Positions 15,126 to 24,758 are shown, counted from the stretch's first letter. The stretch: DNA of 64,000 nt from Rhodocyclaceae bacterium (GCA_027365955.1 DAHXLO010000036.1:83807-147806); one strand, 5' to 3'. Program-made: numbers and translations. The notes: generated by a model not told the origin, from the sequence alone.

Positions 15126-15737
15126 TCAGGCAGCTTTGAGGTGCCAGTCCTGGGACAACGGAGCGAACTCGTAGCCGAGCTTGTCGAGACGGTCGCGCTG
15201 CTGACGCAGCACACGACGATCCACGGTCGCATCGAGCTTCACGGTCTCGCCCAGGGGCCACAAGGCACCAAACAGCACCGCGTCGTCTGCCTCGGCCGAG
15301 GCCGCAGCGGACACGGGAGCCGATTCGCTGCCGAACGGCGTGGTATCGACCAGGGGATCACGCGGACTGCGCGACTTCGCCTTCGGCTTGGCCGGGGGCG
15401 TTGCCGGCGCGGGCGTCTGCGCTTCCTCGTCGATCGGATCGACTTCCTGCGGACTCAGCCGGCGGGCCTCGTCGCGGCTCAGGGCGTCGATGTTGGACAG
15501 TGTCATCCCGCCCAGATGGGCGCGGATCTCGATGACCATGCGGCCGTTGGCGTTGTACGTGGAGGGGCGAATCTCGACGATGACGAAATCACCGTCGTAC
15601 TTGCCCTCGCGGTACTGATCGAGTTCGGCGTTCTTCACGACGAACTCGCCGATCGAGGTCGCCAGGCGGCCGACGTTGAAGTCGCCGTTCCTGCCGTGGA
15701 TGGTCTTGATGGCCAGTTGGCCGGGGATGGTGATCAT
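15126..15737 (-). CDS. DUF3275-like ICE protein
   Basis: MITIPGQLAIKTIHGRNGDFNVGRL N-terminus; CAGGAG RBS. Confidence 0.8.
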   Translation of the reverse strand: MITIPGQLAIKTIHGRNGDFNVGRLATSIGEFVVKNAELDQYREGKYDGDFVIVEIRPSTYNANGRMVIEIRAHLGGMTLSNIDALSRDEARRLSPQEVDPIDEEAQTPAPATPPAKPKAKSRSPRDPLVDTTPFGSESAPVSAAASAEADDAVLFGALWPLGETVKLDATVDRRVLRQQRDRLDKLGYEFAPLSQDWHLKAA

Positions 15738-15792
15738 GAAGGTCTCCTGCTGACGAAGAGAAGACAAGGCCCCGGGGATGGGGCCTTGCGGA

Positions 15793-16344
15793 TCAGAACG
15801 ACTCGGCAACGGCCAATGCGGGGGCATCGGCAGCGTCGTCGGCAGCATCGGCGTCGGGCTTGGAAGGCTCCGGTGCCGAGGCTTGCTGCGCGGCGGGCGC
15901 GTCGGACGTCACAGGGACTTCCGGGTCGCGCTCGTCGGTCTCGGTCGGCTTGGGTTCGGCCTTGTAGACGAGCTTGCCGTCGACCTTGATCCAACTGACG
16001 AACAGCAGGCGGGCCTTGAGGCTCACCCCCTGCTCGCCGGCACGCTTGCCCTTGGAGTAGGTGAAGGTGTCGGCCCACAGGTCGCCCAGGCGGAAGCCGA
16101 TCATCACCTTCTTCTCGGCGTCGACCGCCTGAATGCAGCGGCGCACCAGGTGCTGCGCTTCCGAACCCGATACGCGCGTGTCGAAACGCACATACGAGAC
16201 GTCATCGCTGGGACCGTTCAGAGCCGCGATGTCGCAGGCCAGGAACGCATCGCCTTTCTTGGGCTTCACTTCGCGGATGCGATTGAGATACCCGAGGCCG
16301 GTGATGTGCAGATCGAAGTAGGACTTTTCGGTGGAAGTGGTCAT
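15793..16344 (-). CDS. DUF3577 (STY4534-like) ICE protein
   Basis: YFDLHITGLGYLNRIREV N-terminus; CAGGAG RBS. Confidence 0.82.
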   Translation of the reverse strand: MTTSTEKSYFDLHITGLGYLNRIREVKPKKGDAFLACDIAALNGPSDDVSYVRFDTRVSGSEAQHLVRRCIQAVDAEKKVMIGFRLGDLWADTFTYSKGKRAGEQGVSLKARLLFVSWIKVDGKLVYKAEPKPTETDERDPEVPVTSDAPAAQQASAPEPSKPDADAADDAADAPALAVAESF

Positions 16345-16497
16345 GGTGAATCTCCTGAGAACAATGAGGCGGAGACACACCCGACCCAAGGCGGGGAAGG
16401 TGTGGAACCCCCGCGTGGGTTGATGGAACAGCTTGGTGGCATCGCCATCGAGAACCGATGGCCGTTCGCGCATGGATGCCGGTGCGAACTGGGGTGA

Positions 16498-16570
16498 TCA
16501 ACGCGGTCGGAACCGCATCGCAGCCTTGAAGATCGTGGCTGCCTGGGCATGTCGCTGACGGACGTCAGCG
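16498..16570 (-). repeat. Family B three-hairpin element, copy 1
   Basis: CAACGCGGTCGGAACCGCATCGCAGCCTTGAAGATCGTGGCTGCCTGGGCATGTCGCTGACGGACGTCAGC; aligns with the copies at 18026 and 19960. Confidence 0.8.
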
Positions 16571-16649
16571 GAACATGGGCGGAAGCGTGGCGCCGGGGCG
16601 GCGCGCATGCGAGCGGTAATTGGCACTCGCGGCTGTCCGCATTGCCGGG

Positions 16650-16676
16650 AAGAAAGAGGCCCCCGGAGCGGGGGCC
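16650..16676 (-). terminator. Intrinsic terminator after the DUF3085 gene
   Basis: Minus strand GGCCCCC-loop-GGGGGCC followed by TCTTTCTT. Confidence 0.7.
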
Positions 16677-16688
16677 AGGGATGGGCGG

Positions 16689-17054
16689 TCAGTTACCGCT
16701 GGGCGCGGAAGGAACCGCCTGCAGCGACAGGTGTGTCGCGGTGGCGGACACGTCGAGATCGTCCTCGCTGTGCAGGATGCACGCAAACACGCCCTCCTTC
16801 GGATCGAAGAACTCGCCAAAGTCATCGCCGCCGAACTCGGCGCGCGCCAGCTCCCACCAGTCATCGAACGCATCGACATCCGGGTTGCAGCCAGCGGCAT
16901 AGGCGATGGTCTTCTGGCGACCATCGGGTCGGCGCTCGCCGCGCTCGGCCAGGAAGTACACGCCCTGATCCTTGACCAGGATGACGCGGCATTGATTCGC
17001 CACCGCTTCGGCGAGCACGGGCCGCAGCTCCGTGCCTTTGAATCGAACAGTCAT
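16689..17054 (-). CDS. DUF3085-like protein
   Basis: LVKDQGVYFL, YAAGCNP and FGGDDFGE motifs. Confidence 0.82.
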   Translation of the reverse strand: MTVRFKGTELRPVLAEAVANQCRVILVKDQGVYFLAERGERRPDGRQKTIAYAAGCNPDVDAFDDWWELARAEFGGDDFGEFFDPKEGVFACILHSEDDLDVSATATHLSLQAVPSAPSGN

Positions 17055-17120
17055 GGGTGTGATCTCCAGGGATGCAGGAAGAGAGGCTTCCCGCCGCGAA
17101 GGCGGGAAGCTGCTGGGAGA

Positions 17121-17921
17121 TCAGTGCCGGACAGCCTTGCGACCCGACAACAGGCACTGCACTCGGATGCGGCGCCAGCTCCCGTCGTCGATCAGCCGTT
17201 CCAGCGTCTCGCCGAGGGTGTCGAAGAACACCTCATCGACCCGTTCAATCAGCTCGCCGTCGCGGCGCAGCTCCACCGCGTAGAGGTCGAGGCCACGCTC
17301 ATACAGCACGGTGACGCAACCCTGGAACTTCGTCGTGGCGACGGTGAAGCCGATGGCCGGCGGCGTGCGGATGATGTCGGCGGGCAGCGGATCGACCCAG
17401 GTGATGTCCCGCGCACCGGCATCCACCAGCATGTGGGTGATGCGCCGGAAGCCGTCGGGAGCGGGCAACTGCTCCAGTTGGTCGATCAGTTCCTGCAGCT
17501 CGGGGCAGCGCGGCTCGGGGATCGGCAGCTTCGCCGGTGCGGAACCGAGCACGAACCGCTTCACCGTGTAGGGCTGGCCGTCGGCGGTGAACTCGGTCTG
17601 CTCCTCGGGCGTGTCCGCCCGCTGACCGTCGAAGGGGCGTCTGACATAGGGTTCGACCTGCACCTTGGCGCCCTCGTCGGGCACCTCGGTCACGAGCGTT
17701 CGATCGAGCACCGCGAACTCGGCTCGTCCCGTCTTGACGACGATGGCCTCGTCGGTGGTGGCGATGACCTTGCCCTCGAAAGGCTTCGGGTCAATGTGAA
17801 AGCCCAGCGTCGAAACCTTGGGCTGGCCGTCGAAGATGTTGAACTTGAACGAACGGACGTTGGAAGGCACATGACCGACAACGAGCGTCGGCATCTGTGC
17901 GCGGATGGCTTGGGTATCCAT
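17121..17921 (-). CDS. Conserved hypothetical ICE protein
   Basis: 266-aa ORF starting MDTQAIRAQMP with AAGGAG RBS. Confidence 0.78.
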   Translation of the reverse strand: MDTQAIRAQMPTLVVGHVPSNVRSFKFNIFDGQPKVSTLGFHIDPKPFEGKVIATTDEAIVVKTGRAEFAVLDRTLVTEVPDEGAKVQVEPYVRRPFDGQRADTPEEQTEFTADGQPYTVKRFVLGSAPAKLPIPEPRCPELQELIDQLEQLPAPDGFRRITHMLVDAGARDITWVDPLPADIIRTPPAIGFTVATTKFQGCVTVLYERGLDLYAVELRRDGELIERVDEVFFDTLGETLERLIDDGSWRRIRVQCLLSGRKAVRH

Positions 17922-18025
17922 GGGGAGACTCCTTGTGGCAACCAAGGGACTCCCGCCCGCAAGGGAGGTCTGTCCCTTGAGGGTGAGGTGGATGGACGCG
18001 GGTGCGCCCGGAGAACGAAACAACC

Positions 18026-18092
18026 AGCACGGCGAACCGCGCCGCAGTCTCGAAGGTCTCGACTGCCTGGGCATGCTGCCGGCAACGCCAGC
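18026..18092 (-). repeat. Family B three-hairpin element, copy 2 (most diverged)
   Basis: GGCGAACCGCGCCGCAGTCTCGAAGGTCTCGACTGCCTGGGCATGCTGCCGGCAACGCCAGC. Confidence 0.72.
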
Positions 18093-18170
18093 GAACATGC
18101 GGCCAGCGTGCGGCACATGACGGCGGCCGTCCGCCTGGAATCGGCAACGCGCCGGCACCGCGTTCCGCGG

Positions 18171-18195
18171 AAAAGAAGAGCCCCGCACGGGGCTC
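18171..18195 (-). terminator. Intrinsic terminator after the 18205-18921 gene
   Basis: Minus strand GAGCCCC-GTGC-GGGGCTC followed by TTCTTTT. Confidence 0.72.
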
Positions 18196-18204
18196 AAGAG
18201 GGGG

Positions 18205-18921
18205 TTACTCGTCGTCGTAGAGCGTCAGTCCGTCCAGCACGGGCGCGCCGGCATCGAACACCAACATGCGAACGTCGGCGAGCGCAGCCAGGTGCAACAC
18301 TTCCACGAGGGACTCCGGCATGCCCTTGGCCCGGTGCTCCTGCCGCAGTTCTTCGGCGGTGATGCCCTCGACCTGCTGCACGTTCGCATCCGTCCAGGGC
18401 GTGGCGATCAGCTTCACGCCGACCGCCGGGCTGTAGGGAATGCGGAAGGCGATGAACAGAAAACCGCTCGGCGTGGCGATGTCGGCCAGGTTGGCCAGAT
18501 AGCGGCCGGCCTCCTCGGTGATGTGCGCCGAGCTGATTTCCCAGGCACGGCTGTAGAAGCCGGTCTCGAAGCGCAGGCGCCGCACCACCTCGCGTGCGGC
18601 TTCCTCGGAGTAGGTATCGCCGACGTGCAGCGGCTGGCCGGCTTCTTCGGCCATGACGGCGTAGACGAGGTTTCGGGCGATGCCGTGGCTGCGGCATTGC
18701 GCGTCCAGCTCGGGCGGCACGTTCTGGCCTTCCGTGATCAGCGCGAAGTCGTCGCAGAAGACGCAGGCATGGCGCTCGACCTGGCTGTCCGGCAGGTGCG
18801 ACTGCGAGACGTGCAGCGGCAGATAGCTCAGCGGGCAGTCGTCGTCGTAGGAAATCGCCAGCAGCCGTTGCACGGACAGGCCATCGTAGCCGCGGACGAA
18901 GGGGTTGTTGGAATGGGACAT
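18205..18921 (-). CDS. Conserved hypothetical ICE protein
   Basis: 238-aa ORF starting MSHSNNPFVRGY with GGAGG RBS. Confidence 0.78.
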   Translation of the reverse strand: MSHSNNPFVRGYDGLSVQRLLAISYDDDCPLSYLPLHVSQSHLPDSQVERHACVFCDDFALITEGQNVPPELDAQCRSHGIARNLVYAVMAEEAGQPLHVGDTYSEEAAREVVRRLRFETGFYSRAWEISSAHITEEAGRYLANLADIATPSGFLFIAFRIPYSPAVGVKLIATPWTDANVQQVEGITAEELRQEHRAKGMPESLVEVLHLAALADVRMLVFDAGAPVLDGLTLYDDE

Positions 18922-19171
18922 GGGATTCCTCCAGCAGAGGATGGCCGAGGCAATCCCCTGCCGGGGATTGAACCCCAGCGGGTGGATGAAGTGGCAGCCG
19001 GTCAGCCGGCCGCGGCGTCGGACCGCCCTGGTGGCGGGCGGTGCGGGTCAGTGGAAGATGCTGATTCGGGACATGGCCGCTCCTGCGAAAAGAAGGAGGG
19101 ACATGGCCCCGAACGGGGACGCATGTCCCTCGTGGGGTGGGATGAAAGGACGGTGGGTTGCCAGGCGCGGC

Positions 19172-19564
19172 TCACCAGCCGTTGTAGTGCAGCGTGAGGT
19201 CAGCGATGACCTGGCGCCGTTCCAGATCGAGGCCGCCGAAGTCGGACAGCCCCTCGAAGCCGCAACGCTTGAGCATCGCGCCACCCTCGCGGGCGTTGTA
19301 GAAGCTCACCATCGCGGACAGGAACATGCGTTGACCGCTGCTCAGCACGCCCAGGGCGTCGTTGAGCATCAGCATGTTGGGCCGCAGATCCCACTTGGTG
19401 GTGGCACGCTGCAGACCTTCGCGTGTGCCGTCGCCGAACCACTCGTGGCCGGCGATCTGCGCGCCGCGCTTCCAGGCCTCGAAGAAGGCCTGCGGTGCAG
19501 CGTCGAAGTGCGCCTGTTCCAGCGCCATCTGATCGAGCACGTCTTCGGGCAAAGACAGATTCAT
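19172..19564 (-). CDS. Conserved hypothetical ICE protein
   Basis: 130-aa ORF with AAGGAG RBS. Confidence 0.78.
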   Translation of the reverse strand: MNLSLPEDVLDQMALEQAHFDAAPQAFFEAWKRGAQIAGHEWFGDGTREGLQRATTKWDLRPNMLMLNDALGVLSSGQRMFLSAMVSFYNAREGGAMLKRCGFEGLSDFGGLDLERRQVIADLTLHYNGW

Positions 19565-19590
19565 GAGAGGACTCCTTGAAGGGTGGGGAA

Positions 19591-19827
19591 TCAGGGCTGA
19601 GCGCGCTGCGTCCAGGCATGGGTATCCAGGGCGCGCTGTGCTGCGAGGTGGGTGGGGAAATACTCGACGGACTCCCGCGATACCGGGCCTTCGTCGTCTT
19701 GCGTGCCGATGTATTGGCCGGCCGCGCTGCGCAGCACCTGTAGCGGCAGACGCTTGCCGGTCCAGGCCAGCGCCAGCGCACCACTGCGCACTGCGGTTGC
19801 AGAGGAAGATGCGGAAGGTTCAGACAT
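19591..19827 (-). CDS. Small conserved ICE protein
   Basis: LQVLRSAAGQYIGT...PVSRES.EYF motif; AAGGAG RBS. Confidence 0.75.
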   Translation of the reverse strand: MSEPSASSSATAVRSGALALAWTGKRLPLQVLRSAAGQYIGTQDDEGPVSRESVEYFPTHLAAQRALDTHAWTQRAQP

Positions 19828-19959
19828 GCCGTGCTCCTTGGTGGGTCGGGGAGCACGCATCCCACAGGGGATGGGGTTCCCCTCGGGTGGTTGAGAAAAG
19901 TGCATCGTCGCCAGGCCGGCGAGCGTCCGCGGTGGGCGATGCGAAGCGGACTGGATCGG

Positions 19960-20030
19960 TCAACGCGGCGAACCGCGTTGCAGTCTTGAAGACCGAGACT
20001 GCCAGGGCATGCCGCTGACGACTGTCAGCA
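19960..20030 (-). repeat. Family B three-hairpin element, copy 3
   Basis: CAACGCGGCGAACCGCGTTGCAGTCTTGAAGACCGAGACTGCCAGGGCATGCCGCTGACGACTGTCAGC; first stem is a perfect 8 bp. Confidence 0.8.
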
Positions 20031-20606
20031 ACGCATGGGTGAGGATGGGCGCGAAGCATGGCTGCCGTCGCAGGGAAAACCGAATCGCGGACGGCCCGCT
20101 TTAGGGCAGGCCCGCGTCACGGGACAAGGCAAGGACCAGGGCGCCGAAGGCCACGCGGGCCTTCGGCTGGAGAGGAAGGAAAACCACCTGTGGGCTGCGT
20201 CAGCGCAGGCCGTCGTCAAAGCCGTTCGCTGCGTCAGCAATCGCACCCGGCCCGTTTCGTGGCTGGGGCCGGAAACCTCTGGCGTGCATCCACACACAAA
20301 GGGAGCCCGTTGTTCCGCCGGCGGGCACCGGCACGGAATACCCTCGGCCCAAGTGGCCTCCTCACGGCTCGCGCGGCGGCAAGGCGTCAGGAAGCCCCTC
20401 GTGGCCGAGGCAAGGCACACCGATCAAGGGAATGGCGGCGGGCGCGATTCGTGGAGCAATGACCTTCTCGCCCCGTCGCCCGATGCCGGGCAGACGGGGC
20501 GCGCACACCGTTGCAGAAGGAGACGCGCGCTTTGGAGTCCCGCGCGGCGCGGGACGTTTGCCTCGCCGCCAGTGAAGTGGCCGGCGCGGCAGGGGAAAAG
20601 CGAGGA

Positions 20607-22622
20607 TCAGGACGCCTTGGAGGCAGCGCGCCGCTTGCGCGGTGCGCTGCGCCGGCCCGTCGGGGACTCGATCGGCAGCGTGCCCTTGCAGTCCGGGTAG
20701 CGCGAGCAGGACCAGAACGCGCCGCTCTTGCCCGTGCGCTGCTGCATCGGTGTGCCGCACTGCGGGCAGGCCGGCGCCGGCGGCAGCTTGAGCGAGAGCG
20801 TTGCGCCGCGGTACTGCTGCACGAGCTGGCCGACCCACACGGACTGCTTCTCGATGAAGGTGTCCAGCGCCATCTGGCCGGCCTCGATCATGTCGAGTGC
20901 CTGCTCCCACACCGCCGTGGTGCCGGGGTCGGCGATGGCCGAGGGCACCGCGTCGATGAGCGTGAATGCCGCGTCGGAAGCGCGGACGGCGCGGCCTTTC
21001 TTGACCAGGTAGCCGCGACCGATCAGACCGTTGATGATGTTGGCGCGTGTCGCCTCGGTGCCGATGCCGGTGGTATCTCGCAGCTTCTGTTTCAGCCGCG
21101 GGTCGGTCACGAACTTGGCGACGGTCTTCATGGCCTTGATCAGCTCGCCCTGCGTGTAGGGTTTGGGCGGCAGCGTCTTCAGCGCCTTGAGATCCACCTT
21201 TCCGACCGGGCAGGACAGGCCCGCATGCAGGGCGGGCAGCACCTGGCTGCGCTGCACATCCTCGCCATCGGCATCGTCCGGCCCCGGCGTCGCCAGCACC
21301 TCGCGCCAGCCGGTGACGGCGATCTGCTTGCCCACGGCCGCCAGCGACTGACCGCCGCACGAGAACTGCGCCATCGTGCGGTCGAACTCATGGTGTGGGA
21401 GGAACTGCGCGAGGTAATGGGCGCGGATCAGCCGGTAGACGGCCAGCTCCTTCTCGCTCATGGCCGACAGGTTGGCGGGTTCCAGCGTCGGGATGATGCC
21501 GTGGTGAGCCGACACCTTGCCGTCGTTCCATGCACGCGAGCGCAGTTGGCGATCCAGGCGCTCGATCAGCGGCCGCAGGCTGGGGTCGGTCTTGACCAGG
21601 CTGTCGAGTACGGTCGGCACCTCAGCCAGCATGCTCTCGGGCAGGTAGCCCGAATCCGAGCGCGGATACGTTGTCGCCTTGTGCGTCTCGTACAGCGCCT
21701 GGGCAATGTCCAGCGTCTCCTGCACGTCGAGGCCCAACTGCTTGGAGCACACCTCCTGCAGCGTGCCCAGGTCGAACGGCAGCGGCGGCCCTTCGCGAAC
21801 GCGCTCGGTTTCTACCGACAGCACCTGGGCGGAGCCGGCCGTGCGCAGGCGCTCGGCGGCCTGCTGCGCCACCGGCTGTTGCAGGCAGCGGCCCGCATCG
21901 TCGGTGCTGCCTTGCGGCGGCGTCCAGCTTGCGACGAAGGGCTGGCCTGCATGCGATAGCGCAACCTCGATGGCCCAGAACGGTACGCAGACGAAGCGCG
22001 CGATCTCGCGATCGCGGTCCACGACCAACTTCAGCGTCGGCGTCTGCACGCGCCCCACCGACAGCACGCCGCTATAGCCGGCCTGGCGCCCCAGCAGTGT
22101 GAACAGGCGGCTCAGGTTCATCCCGATCAGCCAGTCGGCGCGCGATCGGGCGAGTGCGGAGAAATACAGCGGCAGCGTCTCGGCGGACGGCTTGAGCGCG
22201 CCCAGCGCCTTGCGGATCGACGCATCGTTGAGCGCCGACAGCCACAGGCGCTGAATCGGCCCGCGGTAGCCGCATAGGTCGATGATCTCGCGGGCGATCA
22301 TCTCGCCCTCGCGGTCGGCGTCGGTCGCAATCACCAACTCGCTCGCCTTGGCGACGAACTGCTGCACGACCTTGAATTGCGCTGCGGTCGCCGCCTTGGG
22401 CTCGACACGCCAACGCTCAGGAAGAATGGGCAGTTGCTCGATGGCCCAGCGCTTGTATTGCTCGCCGTAACCTTCGGGCGGAACCGCCTCCACCAGATGA
22501 CCGATGCACCAGGTCACGACGACACCTGCGCCGCTGTAGCAGCCGTTGCCGCGTTGACCGGCACCCAGCACACGGGCGATGTCCTTGCCCTGGGACGGCT
22601 TCTCGCACAGGAACACGCGCAT
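20607..22622 (-). CDS. topB: DNA topoisomerase III
   Basis: Toprim CEKPSQ and DADREGE, GRVQTPTL, catalytic TYPRSD, C-terminal zinc ribbon. Confidence 0.95.
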   Translation of the reverse strand: MRVFLCEKPSQGKDIARVLGAGQRGNGCYSGAGVVVTWCIGHLVEAVPPEGYGEQYKRWAIEQLPILPERWRVEPKAATAAQFKVVQQFVAKASELVIATDADREGEMIAREIIDLCGYRGPIQRLWLSALNDASIRKALGALKPSAETLPLYFSALARSRADWLIGMNLSRLFTLLGRQAGYSGVLSVGRVQTPTLKLVVDRDREIARFVCVPFWAIEVALSHAGQPFVASWTPPQGSTDDAGRCLQQPVAQQAAERLRTAGSAQVLSVETERVREGPPLPFDLGTLQEVCSKQLGLDVQETLDIAQALYETHKATTYPRSDSGYLPESMLAEVPTVLDSLVKTDPSLRPLIERLDRQLRSRAWNDGKVSAHHGIIPTLEPANLSAMSEKELAVYRLIRAHYLAQFLPHHEFDRTMAQFSCGGQSLAAVGKQIAVTGWREVLATPGPDDADGEDVQRSQVLPALHAGLSCPVGKVDLKALKTLPPKPYTQGELIKAMKTVAKFVTDPRLKQKLRDTTGIGTEATRANIINGLIGRGYLVKKGRAVRASDAAFTLIDAVPSAIADPGTTAVWEQALDMIEAGQMALDTFIEKQSVWVGQLVQQYRGATLSLKLPPAPACPQCGTPMQQRTGKSGAFWSCSRYPDCKGTLPIESPTGRRSAPRKRRAASKAS

Positions 22623-24617: not shown

Positions 24618-24737
24618 GGGAGCGACTCGCGGTGAATTGGCGAGTCGCCAGCATCGGCATCGGCCGGAAGGCTGTCAGTCAACAAACCGCAGCCCATGCG
24701 CGCCCGGTTTGTTCCGCGCGGAAGGCTGTGTGTGCCG

Positions 24738-24758
24738 GCTATCCCCTGGGGATAGCTC
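24738..24758. promoter_or_regulatory. Palindromic box, copy 2 (about 120 bp upstream of the inrR-like gene)
   Basis: GCTATCCCCTGGGGATAGC perfect inverted repeat around a central T. Confidence 0.6.

Follow-up and report, generated by a model that had tools for sequence, protein, structure and literature searches.

Three radC RNA copies in an ICEclc-type element

The window analysed here, 64,000 nt of DNA from a Rhodocyclaceae bacterium (GCA_027365955.1 DAHXLO010000036.1:83807-147806), is backbone of an integrative conjugative element (ICE) of the ICEclc/PFGI-1/SPI-7 class. Its minus strand encodes ParA, a PFGI-1-type ParB-like protein, a replication protein of the STY4528 family, PilL2, a TIGR03759 protein and TraD. 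Directly after the topoisomerase III gene topB (20607..22622, minus strand) lie three consecutive short operons, headed by copies 3, 2 and 1, respectively, of a repeated non-coding element. A scan of the whole window against Rfam at gathering thresholds returned exactly three matches; each is a minus-strand match to RF01754 (radC RNA, type Cis-reg) that spans positions 1-149 of the covariance model. Copies 1, 2 and 3 scored 127.9, 98.8 and 118.5 bits (gathering cut-off, 40 bits), their E-values ranging from 1e-17 to 1e-24, well outside what chance would produce. All three repeats are radC RNAs of full length, an element that was catalogued before and is not new. Hairpins P1 to P5, Shine-Dalgarno (SD) sequences, open reading frames (ORFs) and other features of the three loci are given below.

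Copy 1
16439..16587, minus: full-length radC motif (RF01754, E 3.6e-24; 135.3 bits with our own model R1)
16548..16577, minus: P1 (CAUG...GCUGAC-loop-GUCAGC...CAUG), from covariation; predicted 5'-terminal hairpin of the RNA, with the start placed by promoter register
16542..16520 and 16519..16500, minus: P2 and P3, within the block 16495..16542 (covariance alignment)
16535..16531 with 16499..16495, minus: pseudoknot of CGAUC in the P2 loop with GAUCA (pair scan)
16439..16471, minus: 3' domain P4/P5 (Rfam model)
16643..16618, minus: promoter, palindromic activator box AATGCGG-N11-TGCCAATT (box matrix), with the -10-like CACGCT at 16589..16584
16658..16676, minus: intrinsic terminator of the preceding DUF3085 operon
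16376..16369 and 16356..16351, minus: putative anti-SD GUCUCCGC and SD AGGAGA, read from the sequence
15793..16344, minus: gene of a DUF3577/STY4534-family ICE replication protein of 183 amino acids (family search)

Copy 2
17953..18109, minus: full-length radC motif with a variant 3' domain
18099..18072, 18066..18044 and 18043..18026, minus: P1, P2 and P3
17979..17960, minus: 3' hairpin
18058..18055 with 18025..18022, minus: pseudoknot of GACC with GGUU
18164..18139, minus: promoter box AACGCGG-N11-TGCCGATT, downstream of the terminator 18195..18178, with the -10-like CACGCT at 18110..18105
16689..17921, minus: operon of a 266-amino-acid protein with weak similarity to the KfrB domain (17121..17921) and a DUF3085 protein (16689..17054)

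Copy 3
19902..20047, minus: full-length radC motif
20037..20008, 20002..19980 and 19980..19961, minus: P1, P2 and P3 (8 bp, UUCG loop)
19930..19902, minus: P4/P5
19995..19991 with 19961..19957, minus: pseudoknot of CGGUC with GACCG
20102..20077, minus: promoter box AAAGCGG-N11-TTCGGTTT, with the -10-like CATCCT at 20047..20042
18205..19827, minus: operon of a 78-amino-acid ORF (19591..19827), a 130-amino-acid ORF (19172..19564) and a DUF5983-domain protein (18205..18921)

An earlier reading of this DNA, made from the sequence only, had described three repeats of about 70 nt at 16498, 18026 and 19960, and all three are present on the minus (gene-sense) strand. The three hairpins it saw are real, but the true unit is about 150 nt long and adds the pseudoknot and the 3' P4/P5 domain. 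Its suspicion that the element may already be catalogued was justified, though the Rfam name is radC, not one after DUF3577 or DUF3085; a permissive rescan of 15600-20700, with E-values up to 5, returned beyond radC only noise and no motif named after either domain. The stem variants were as described: P2 reads GCAGCC/GGCTGC in copy 1 and GCAGTC/GACTGC in the other two, and P1 reads GCTGGC/GCCGGC in copy 2 and GCTGAC/GTCAGC in the other two. So were the conserved linker, which reads CATGCCCWGG on the sense strand, and the position upstream of minus-strand genes, the distance from the 70-nt core to the start codon being 154, 105 and 133 nt for copies 1, 2 and 3. A perfect 8-bp stem with a UUCG loop is found in copy 3 only; copy 2 has the UUCG loop and one G-U pair in the stem, and copy 1 has a 6-nt loop, UUCCGA.

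All copies in the window carry the features that define radC: hairpins P1, P2 and P3, the CCCAGG linker, the CUUCRAGG loop of P2, and a pseudoknot joining GRYC in the P2 loop with GRYC 3' of P3 (GAUC/GAUC, GACC/GGUU and CGGUC/GACCG in copies 1, 2 and 3). They stand in sense orientation upstream of genes acting on DNA, in a member of the Proteobacteria. The pseudoknot had already been annotated (SS_cons_1) in the original Stockholm alignment (Weinberg 2010). Within the core (P1-P3 plus pseudoknot), the three copies are 72-79% identical in pairwise comparison. The P4/P5 domain is canonical in copies 1 and 3, whereas copy 2 has a variant hairpin with several non-standard pairs in the alignment. 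The contig has a fourth copy (C17:73070-73220), 10.7 kb left of the window. Across the class, the motif was found in 4 of 400 sampled genomes, with 2 to 4 copies each, a sporadic occurrence as expected for mobile DNA.

Homologues were collected by a pattern scan of one genome per species (119 loci) and with our own covariance model, built from 14 copies, which retrieved 144 motifs (124 distinct) from 100 sources. In these 124 sequences the Rfam helices were paired in 92% of cases, compared to 78% in shuffles and 26-54% with slid partners, and double-sided changes occurred in 31 of 34 pairs. Individually, the radC helices were 93-99% paired. A scan of all column pairs by G-test with average product correction placed two unmodelled pairs near the top, both joining the P2 loop with bases just 3' of P3. 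The pseudoknot so formed extends to 4-6 bp and occurs in at least six variants (GAUC/GAUC, GGUC/GACC, GACC/GGUC, AACC/GGUU, AGCC/GGCU and GGGUU/AACCC); it lay outside the aligning model and was still 87.8% paired, with compensatory changes in 5 of 5 pairs. With the pseudoknot included, 91.5% of the cells of all 39 pairs were paired (77.5% in shuffles, 28-47% with slid partners), and compensatory changes were found in 36 of the 39. The covariation that had been proposed from three copies is thereby borne out, and the structure of the motif is established. The P3 loops alternate between UUCG, GAAA and related sequences, and the conserved unpaired bases are the CCCAGG linker, the CUUCAAG loop of P2 and CGCAUC.

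A hairpin is present on both strands of a DNA, and a G-U wobble on one strand is a C-A mismatch on the other. We therefore counted G-U/U-G against A-C/C-A combinations as read on the sense strand. Over the whole motif the counts were 350 to 83; P1-P3 gave about 184 to 21 (about 9:1 for the gene-sense strand), and P2, whose alignment is unambiguous, gave 25 to 3 by itself; two positions are mostly G-U, in 81 and 94-96 of the 124 sequences. Minimum free energy z-scores, calculated for both strands with RNA and DNA parameters, separated neither strands nor chemistries. The wobble excess, together with the UUCG and GAAA loops of P3, established that the structure is selected on the gene-sense strand.

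Promoters and the predicted 5' end of the RNA

Terminator-like hairpins lie before copies 1 and 2 (16676..16658 and 18195..18178), as the sequence-only reading had stated, and a 10-bp hairpin (20167..20143) also precedes copy 3. A palindromic box, AAnGCGG-N11-TGCCGATT, is present upstream of 81 of 122 distinct copies, usually just past the terminator of the previous gene, and in 75 of these 81 it lies 34-36 nt before model position 1. The boxes of copies 1-3 match the P88400/PinR motif of ICEclc. Activation by BisDC has been demonstrated only for ICEclc fragments, to which the window box is likened by sequence (Sulser 2022). The box matrix also matches 24723..24672, before an inrR-like gene that has no radC motif and served as calibration:

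24643..24723, minus: promoter of the inrR-like gene, without radC; the box abuts TTGACT-N17-TGCCGATGCT-N6-T-N25-ATG, transcription is predicted to start at T 24643, the ATG (24617) lying 25 nt further on

In ICEclc, PinR was mapped by rapid amplification of cDNA 5' ends (5'RACE) to a T 25 nt before the start codon, with TTGACT as -35 and TGTCGATCCT as -10 (Gaillard 2010). The inrR-like promoter of the window reproduces this mapped promoter, register included. In radC copies aligned on the box, A occupies +35 in 62 of 76 and T occupies +39 in 60 of 76, in the same register as GATGCT in PinR, which gives a -10-like hexamer of the type cAnnCT. The PinR start (+46 in the box register) coincides with the A of the CAUG that opens P1.

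Among 46 boxless copies, 22, from Pseudomonas-type elements, have the consensus TTGAC(A/C/G)-N17-TA(T/A)A(C/A/T)A in the same register. TTGAC begins there 24 or 25 nt before model position 1 and is nearly absent elsewhere in those upstream regions, and P1 begins 7 nt past the -10 hexamer. Two promoter types thus indicate the same predicted transcription start, at the base of P1, and would make roughly positions 1-10 of the Rfam model promoter DNA, not RNA. In the window, the predicted starts are 16577/16576, ~18098 and ~20036. We also considered a start after P3, where TTGAYC-N15-17-GCATCC resembles the -35/-10 of PinR; Sulser 2022 had, moreover, given 152 bp from box to PinR start. This was rejected: TTGAYC covaries as a strand of the pseudoknot, the PinR analogue of the window has its box abutting the -35, and two promoter types place the start at P1.

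Published data on ICEclc and Pseudomonas aeruginosa bear on the same region. A 'common motif' of 27 bp has been reported for the transfer-competence promoters of ICEclc (Sulser 2022, S3 Fig). The P81655 and P58432 entries of this motif are identical at 45 of 47 and 41 of 44 positions to radC matches of the DUF3577 class and the radC-gene class, respectively, at model positions 3-50, so that both 'promoter motifs' are hairpin P1 of radC; the P88400 and PinR entries, by contrast, correspond to the upstream box. Placed in the chromosome as reporters in one double-stranded copy, the fragments of P81655 and P88400 were activated by BisDC even without the ICE, P81655 rising from ~43 to ~506 units (Sulser 2022). 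Read coverage upstream of ORF81655 is the highest on ICEclc. 5'RACE failed upstream of ORFs 81655, 88400 and 58432, and a weak primer-extension product was seen ~250 nt upstream of the ORF81655 start codon (Gaillard 2010); from close homologues, we predicted a leader of ~225 nt for this gene.

In the PAPI-1 element of P. aeruginosa PA14, PA14sr_131 is a 127-nt RNA (5290034-5290160, plus strand) with ~1000 reads per kilobase per million (RPKM), just upstream of PA14_59400 and several-fold more abundant than this downstream gene (Wurtzel 2012, Table S6). In the PA14 seed of Weinberg (5289921-5290473), the AUG of P1 is preceded by 111 flank columns, which predicts a start at 5290032. By coordinates, the 5' end of this abundant, discrete RNA is no more than ~2 nt from the predicted position, and the RNA spans the motif. 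An antisense RNA, PA14sr_130 (5289980-5290078, 99 nt, ~480 RPKM), overlaps the promoter and the P1-P2 part of PA14sr_131 (Wurtzel 2012); it may be a genuine antisense regulator or an artefact produced in the library by a very abundant structured RNA. PesA, another small RNA of PAPI-1, was ruled out as a radC motif: it lies downstream of pilM2 and fits PA14sr_128.

Upstream of the inrR-like promoter, 24738-24758 (minus strand) contains GAGCTATCCCCAGGGGATAGCC, near-identical to the ICEclc bisS site GAGCTATCCCCnGGGGATAGCTC. bisS is the loading site of the ParB-like BisD-CTP clamp (PMC12409273).

Downstream genes and the region 3' of the motif

By downstream gene, the radC copies fall into four conserved slots:

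DUF3577 slot: 35 copies, median 94 nt to the start codon
KfrB-like slot: 35 copies, median 33 nt to the start codon
78-amino-acid ORF slot: 26 copies, median 71 nt to the start codon (from 19 of the 26)
RadC slot: 16 copies, median 82 nt to the start codon

The other 7 copies of the 78-amino-acid slot, copy 3 of the window among them, clustered under a spurious longer ORF call; copy 3 has 74 nt between the 3' end of its Rfam match (19902) and the ATG (19827). Searches of the 78- and 130-amino-acid ORFs of the window against Pfam and NCBIfam, and of a related 76-amino-acid homologue against Pfam, found no family.

After a C/U-rich, G-poor spacer and before the start codon, every gene class has a module of four elements, in the order SD mimic, anti-SD, anti-SD and SD; in copy 2 these are CAAGGGAC, CUCCCUUG, GUCCCUUGG and CAAGGAG. 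The module could sequester or free the ribosome-binding site. Such modules lie at 16351-16420, 17929-17979 and 19833-19890, and also before genes that have no radC leader. Directly 3' of the motif, the DUF3577, RadC and 78-amino-acid classes have a conserved C/U-rich, G-poor stretch of 20-35 nt (e.g. CACCAAGCUGUUCCAUCAACCCAC; 16390-16438 and 19860-19901 in the window), which resembles a Rho-utilisation or S1-binding tract. Complementarity of the conserved loops to the SD modules showed nothing consistent across gene classes.

Copy 2, and the KfrB-like class generally, has a U-rich tract, GUUGUUUCGU, after P3 (18025-18044, minus strand) that scores like an intrinsic terminator and may be a class-specific attenuator within the leader. 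Processive antitermination of the put type was not supported: the terminators between radC-led operons evidently work, since Northern blots showed separate transcripts in ICEclc (Gaillard 2010). In the operon of copy 3, a strong T-tailed hairpin (GGGACAUG...CAUGUCCC UCCUUCUUUU; 19049-19110, minus strand) is immediately followed by a ribosome-binding site and an 8-codon ORF (MSRISIFH).

Several PLSDB 'plasmids' of 88-117 kb (NZ_CP063359.1 and others from Stutzerimonas/Pseudomonas) are actually ICEclc/pKLC102-like replicons. They carry ssb, a helicase gene, topB, two radC motifs, a STY4534-family gene and a DUF6094 methyltransferase gene, and one has VIM-2 in its name. The plasmid records that bear the motif are ICE-like replicons with no annotated origin of transfer (oriT).

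A proposed leader RNA, its alternatives and known systems

The radC motif was originally reported in potential 5' untranslated regions of radC genes, integrases, methyltransferases and one anti-restriction gene; its function was not known and its riboswitch status was marked '?' (Weinberg et al. 2010, Genome Biol 11:R31). We propose, with a probability of about 0.75, that each copy is the cis-acting 5' leader of one operon, with a BisDC-type promoter, in the DNA-processing block of the ICE, and regulates that operon after initiation. That radC is a transcribed leader RNA is very probable, whereas the sensing or attenuation part of the model has about an even chance. The structured RNA leader, one of two functions offered by the sequence-only reading, is supported by the covariation, the sense-strand wobbles, the in-register promoters starting at hairpin 1 and the 127-nt RNA of PA14.

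In this model, the terminator of the previous operon would be followed by a BisDC-type box, a cAnnCT hexamer and a start at the base of P1. The RNA would then consist of the 5'-terminal P1, the CCCAGG linker, P2 with its CUUCAAG loop, P3 (often with UUCG or GAAA) and the pseudoknot, followed by a conserved single-stranded stretch, P4/P5, the C/U-rich spacer, the SD module and the start codon. The 5'-terminal hairpin and the compact fold would form a very stable 5' domain that accumulates as a discrete RNA of ~130 nt, and the conserved unpaired bases (CCCAGG, CUUCAAG and CGCAUC) would be the platform for a putative shared factor or ligand. Acting in cis and after initiation, such a factor would set whether transcription and translation reach the operon past the spacer and SD module. 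The outcome would be joint regulation, in transfer-competent donor cells, of four or five operons (radC, 78-amino-acid ORF, KfrB-like/DUF3085 and DUF3577).

Several points weigh against this model. The transcription start was placed by register and from other species; the link to PA14sr_131 joins two published coordinate sets through a count of flank columns, not a sequence alignment; and the sense-strand model used for alignment could have somewhat inflated the G-U excess. Copies of the radC-gene class, the fourth copy included, have neither the box nor a consensus promoter, and the upstream ORF of this class extends 46 nt into the motif, so that read-through or processing must give rise to such RNAs. 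Neither a ligand nor a protein partner nor a regulatory output is on record for radC RNA, and in ICEclc, deletion of the 81655 or 88400 gene blocks left transfer undiminished. The fourth copy itself precedes a gene for a RadC/JAB-domain protein, and its upstream ORF crosses P1 and ends at a UAG in the 5' arm of P2.

A stronger version of the proposal, which we consider possible but rather doubtful, makes the leader a true sensor: a riboswitch-like or protein-titrated attenuator whose core binds a signal of the single-stranded DNA state of the ICE, for example free ICE single-stranded DNA-binding protein (DUF3577 or SSB) or a nucleotide. If so, all DNA-processing operons would be gated together, and the abundant RNA of ~130 nt would be the 'off' product. 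Less likely, the same sequence could in addition be a single-stranded DNA priming site on the transferred strand.

The RNA might instead be passive, its 5' hairpin only stabilising the mRNA, or the ~130-nt species might itself function in trans as a small RNA or protein sponge. In E. coli, mRNAs are known to be stabilised by stem-loops at their 5' ends, and the predicted start at the base of P1, the discrete PA14 RNA in several-fold excess over its downstream gene and the coverage peak upstream of ORF81655 in ICEclc all fit such an account. A stabiliser has no need, however, for a conserved pseudoknot, an invariant CCCAGG linker, a CUUCAAG loop and a second 3' domain, and an always-sense motif at a class-fixed distance (33, 71, 82 or 94 nt) from the start codon, with an SD module after it, points to action in cis; we regard both variants as improbable. 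Still less probable is that the motif is, instead of or beside an RNA, a single-stranded DNA signal of sense polarity, an sso/ssi site (single-strand origin or initiation) that primes the complementary strand during rolling-circle replication or after transfer, like sso1 of ICEBs1. ICEclc uses oriT1 and its relaxase for replication, and the family has no known sso; selection of the fold on one strand only, the several co-oriented copies per element, the promoterless radC-gene class and the tolerance of DNA for G-T pairs would all suit such a site. It gives no rationale, however, for fixed spacing to two kinds of promoter or for a motif whose 5' edge is the predicted RNA start, and UUCG/GNRA loops and the pseudoknot are typical of RNA. 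Neither the position of oriT nor the polarity of the transferred strand in ICEclc-type elements was found in the ICEclc, GGI and review literature searched.

The other function offered by the sequence-only reading, a single-stranded DNA promoter of the Frpo/ssi type, supposes that the incoming transferred strand folds as template, mimics a double-stranded promoter and allows early expression in the recipient. The associated genes (radC, the single-stranded DNA-binding-like DUF3577 gene, methyltransferases and, in the list of Weinberg, anti-restriction) resemble those of plasmid leading regions that use Frpo, each hairpin is also present on the complement, and folding energies are blind to strand. 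The fold must, however, lie on the transferred template strand, which would carry C-A mismatches where the sense strand has its wobbles in P1-P3, and the idea fails this defining test. No stem contains a -35/-10 pair, the lone TTGAYC-like hexamer being a covarying pseudoknot strand, and a search of 15700-20700 for sigma-70 promoter-like sites found none. Conventional promoters stand upstream in register, in donor cells the fragments from ICEclc work as double-stranded DNA and depend on BisDC, and the PA14 RNA begins, by coordinates, at P1. We consider this explanation very unlikely. The same holds, even more strongly, for a double-stranded operator whose inverted repeats bind dimeric ICE regulators without any folded nucleic acid. 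The region is promoter-proximal, and MEME grouped P1 with the ICEclc promoter motif (Sulser 2022). Yet stems that drift while pairing is kept (36 of 39 pairs), a covarying long-range pseudoknot that is not palindromic and the asymmetry of G-U against A-C are unexpected for half-sites, and the true palindromic box is separate, upstream.

As a structured RNA, the radC motif has remained an orphan since 2010; it occurs in one of the most widespread ICE families (ICEclc, PAPI-1/pKLC102, PFGI-1 and SPI-7 included), whose cargo comprises degradation, resistance and virulence genes. The analysis links three literatures that do not cite each other, on the Rfam motif, the BisDC promoters of ICEclc and the abundant PA14 RNA; joined, they fix the promoter and the RNA 5' end, as predicted above, and speak against the single-stranded DNA promoter. 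The P81655 reporter, carried by P. putida that lacks the ICE and in which BisDC can be induced, offers a ready system for testing how the leader acts on the ICE transcripts with the strongest induction.

Compared to radC RF01754 as catalogued, the window copies show no structural difference. Hairpins, CCCAGG linker, CUUCAAGG loop, annotated 4-bp pseudoknot, 3' domain, occurrence in Proteobacteria and position upstream of DNA-acting genes are shared, and the seed sequences belong to this ICE family as well (PAPI-1, PFGI-1, the ICEclc copy in B. xenovorans LB400, and B. petrii). Added here are the assignment of the first ~10 model positions to a predicted -10 region, the four gene slots, and the variant 3' domain and U-rich tract of copy 2. 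The window boxes match P88400/PinR among the BisDC promoters of ICEclc (P81655, P58432, P88400 and PinR), and the inrR-like promoter matches PinR base for base in register. The element and host are different, the BisDC likeness being one of sequence, and the ICEclc promoter papers (Sulser 2022; Gaillard 2010; BisD-CTP clamp 2025) regard the sequence as a promoter motif of DNA and make no mention of radC RNA. PA14sr_131 coincides in coordinates with a radC seed, its 5' end ~2 nt from the P1 start and its length of 127 nt close to that of the motif, but is listed as an uncharacterised small RNA unlinked to radC; the link made here is by coordinates only.

Like Frpo/ssi elements of F-like and other plasmid leading regions, radC motifs are multi-hairpin non-coding elements before establishment-type genes of conjugative DNA. 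Frpo, however, folds on the template (transferred) strand and has its -35/-10 inside a long imperfect stem, whereas the radC fold is selected on the sense strand, its stems contain no promoter hexamers and the motif itself is transcribed. With 5' stabilisers such as the ompA 5' hairpin, and with pseudoknotted riboswitch or protein-binding leaders, radC shares a predicted 5'-terminal hairpin, a compact pseudoknot domain, putative SD-sequestering helices and a leader in excess over its ORF. Pseudoknotted leader regulators differ in that radC has no ligand or protein partner on record, its status as a switch being the '?' of Weinberg 2010.

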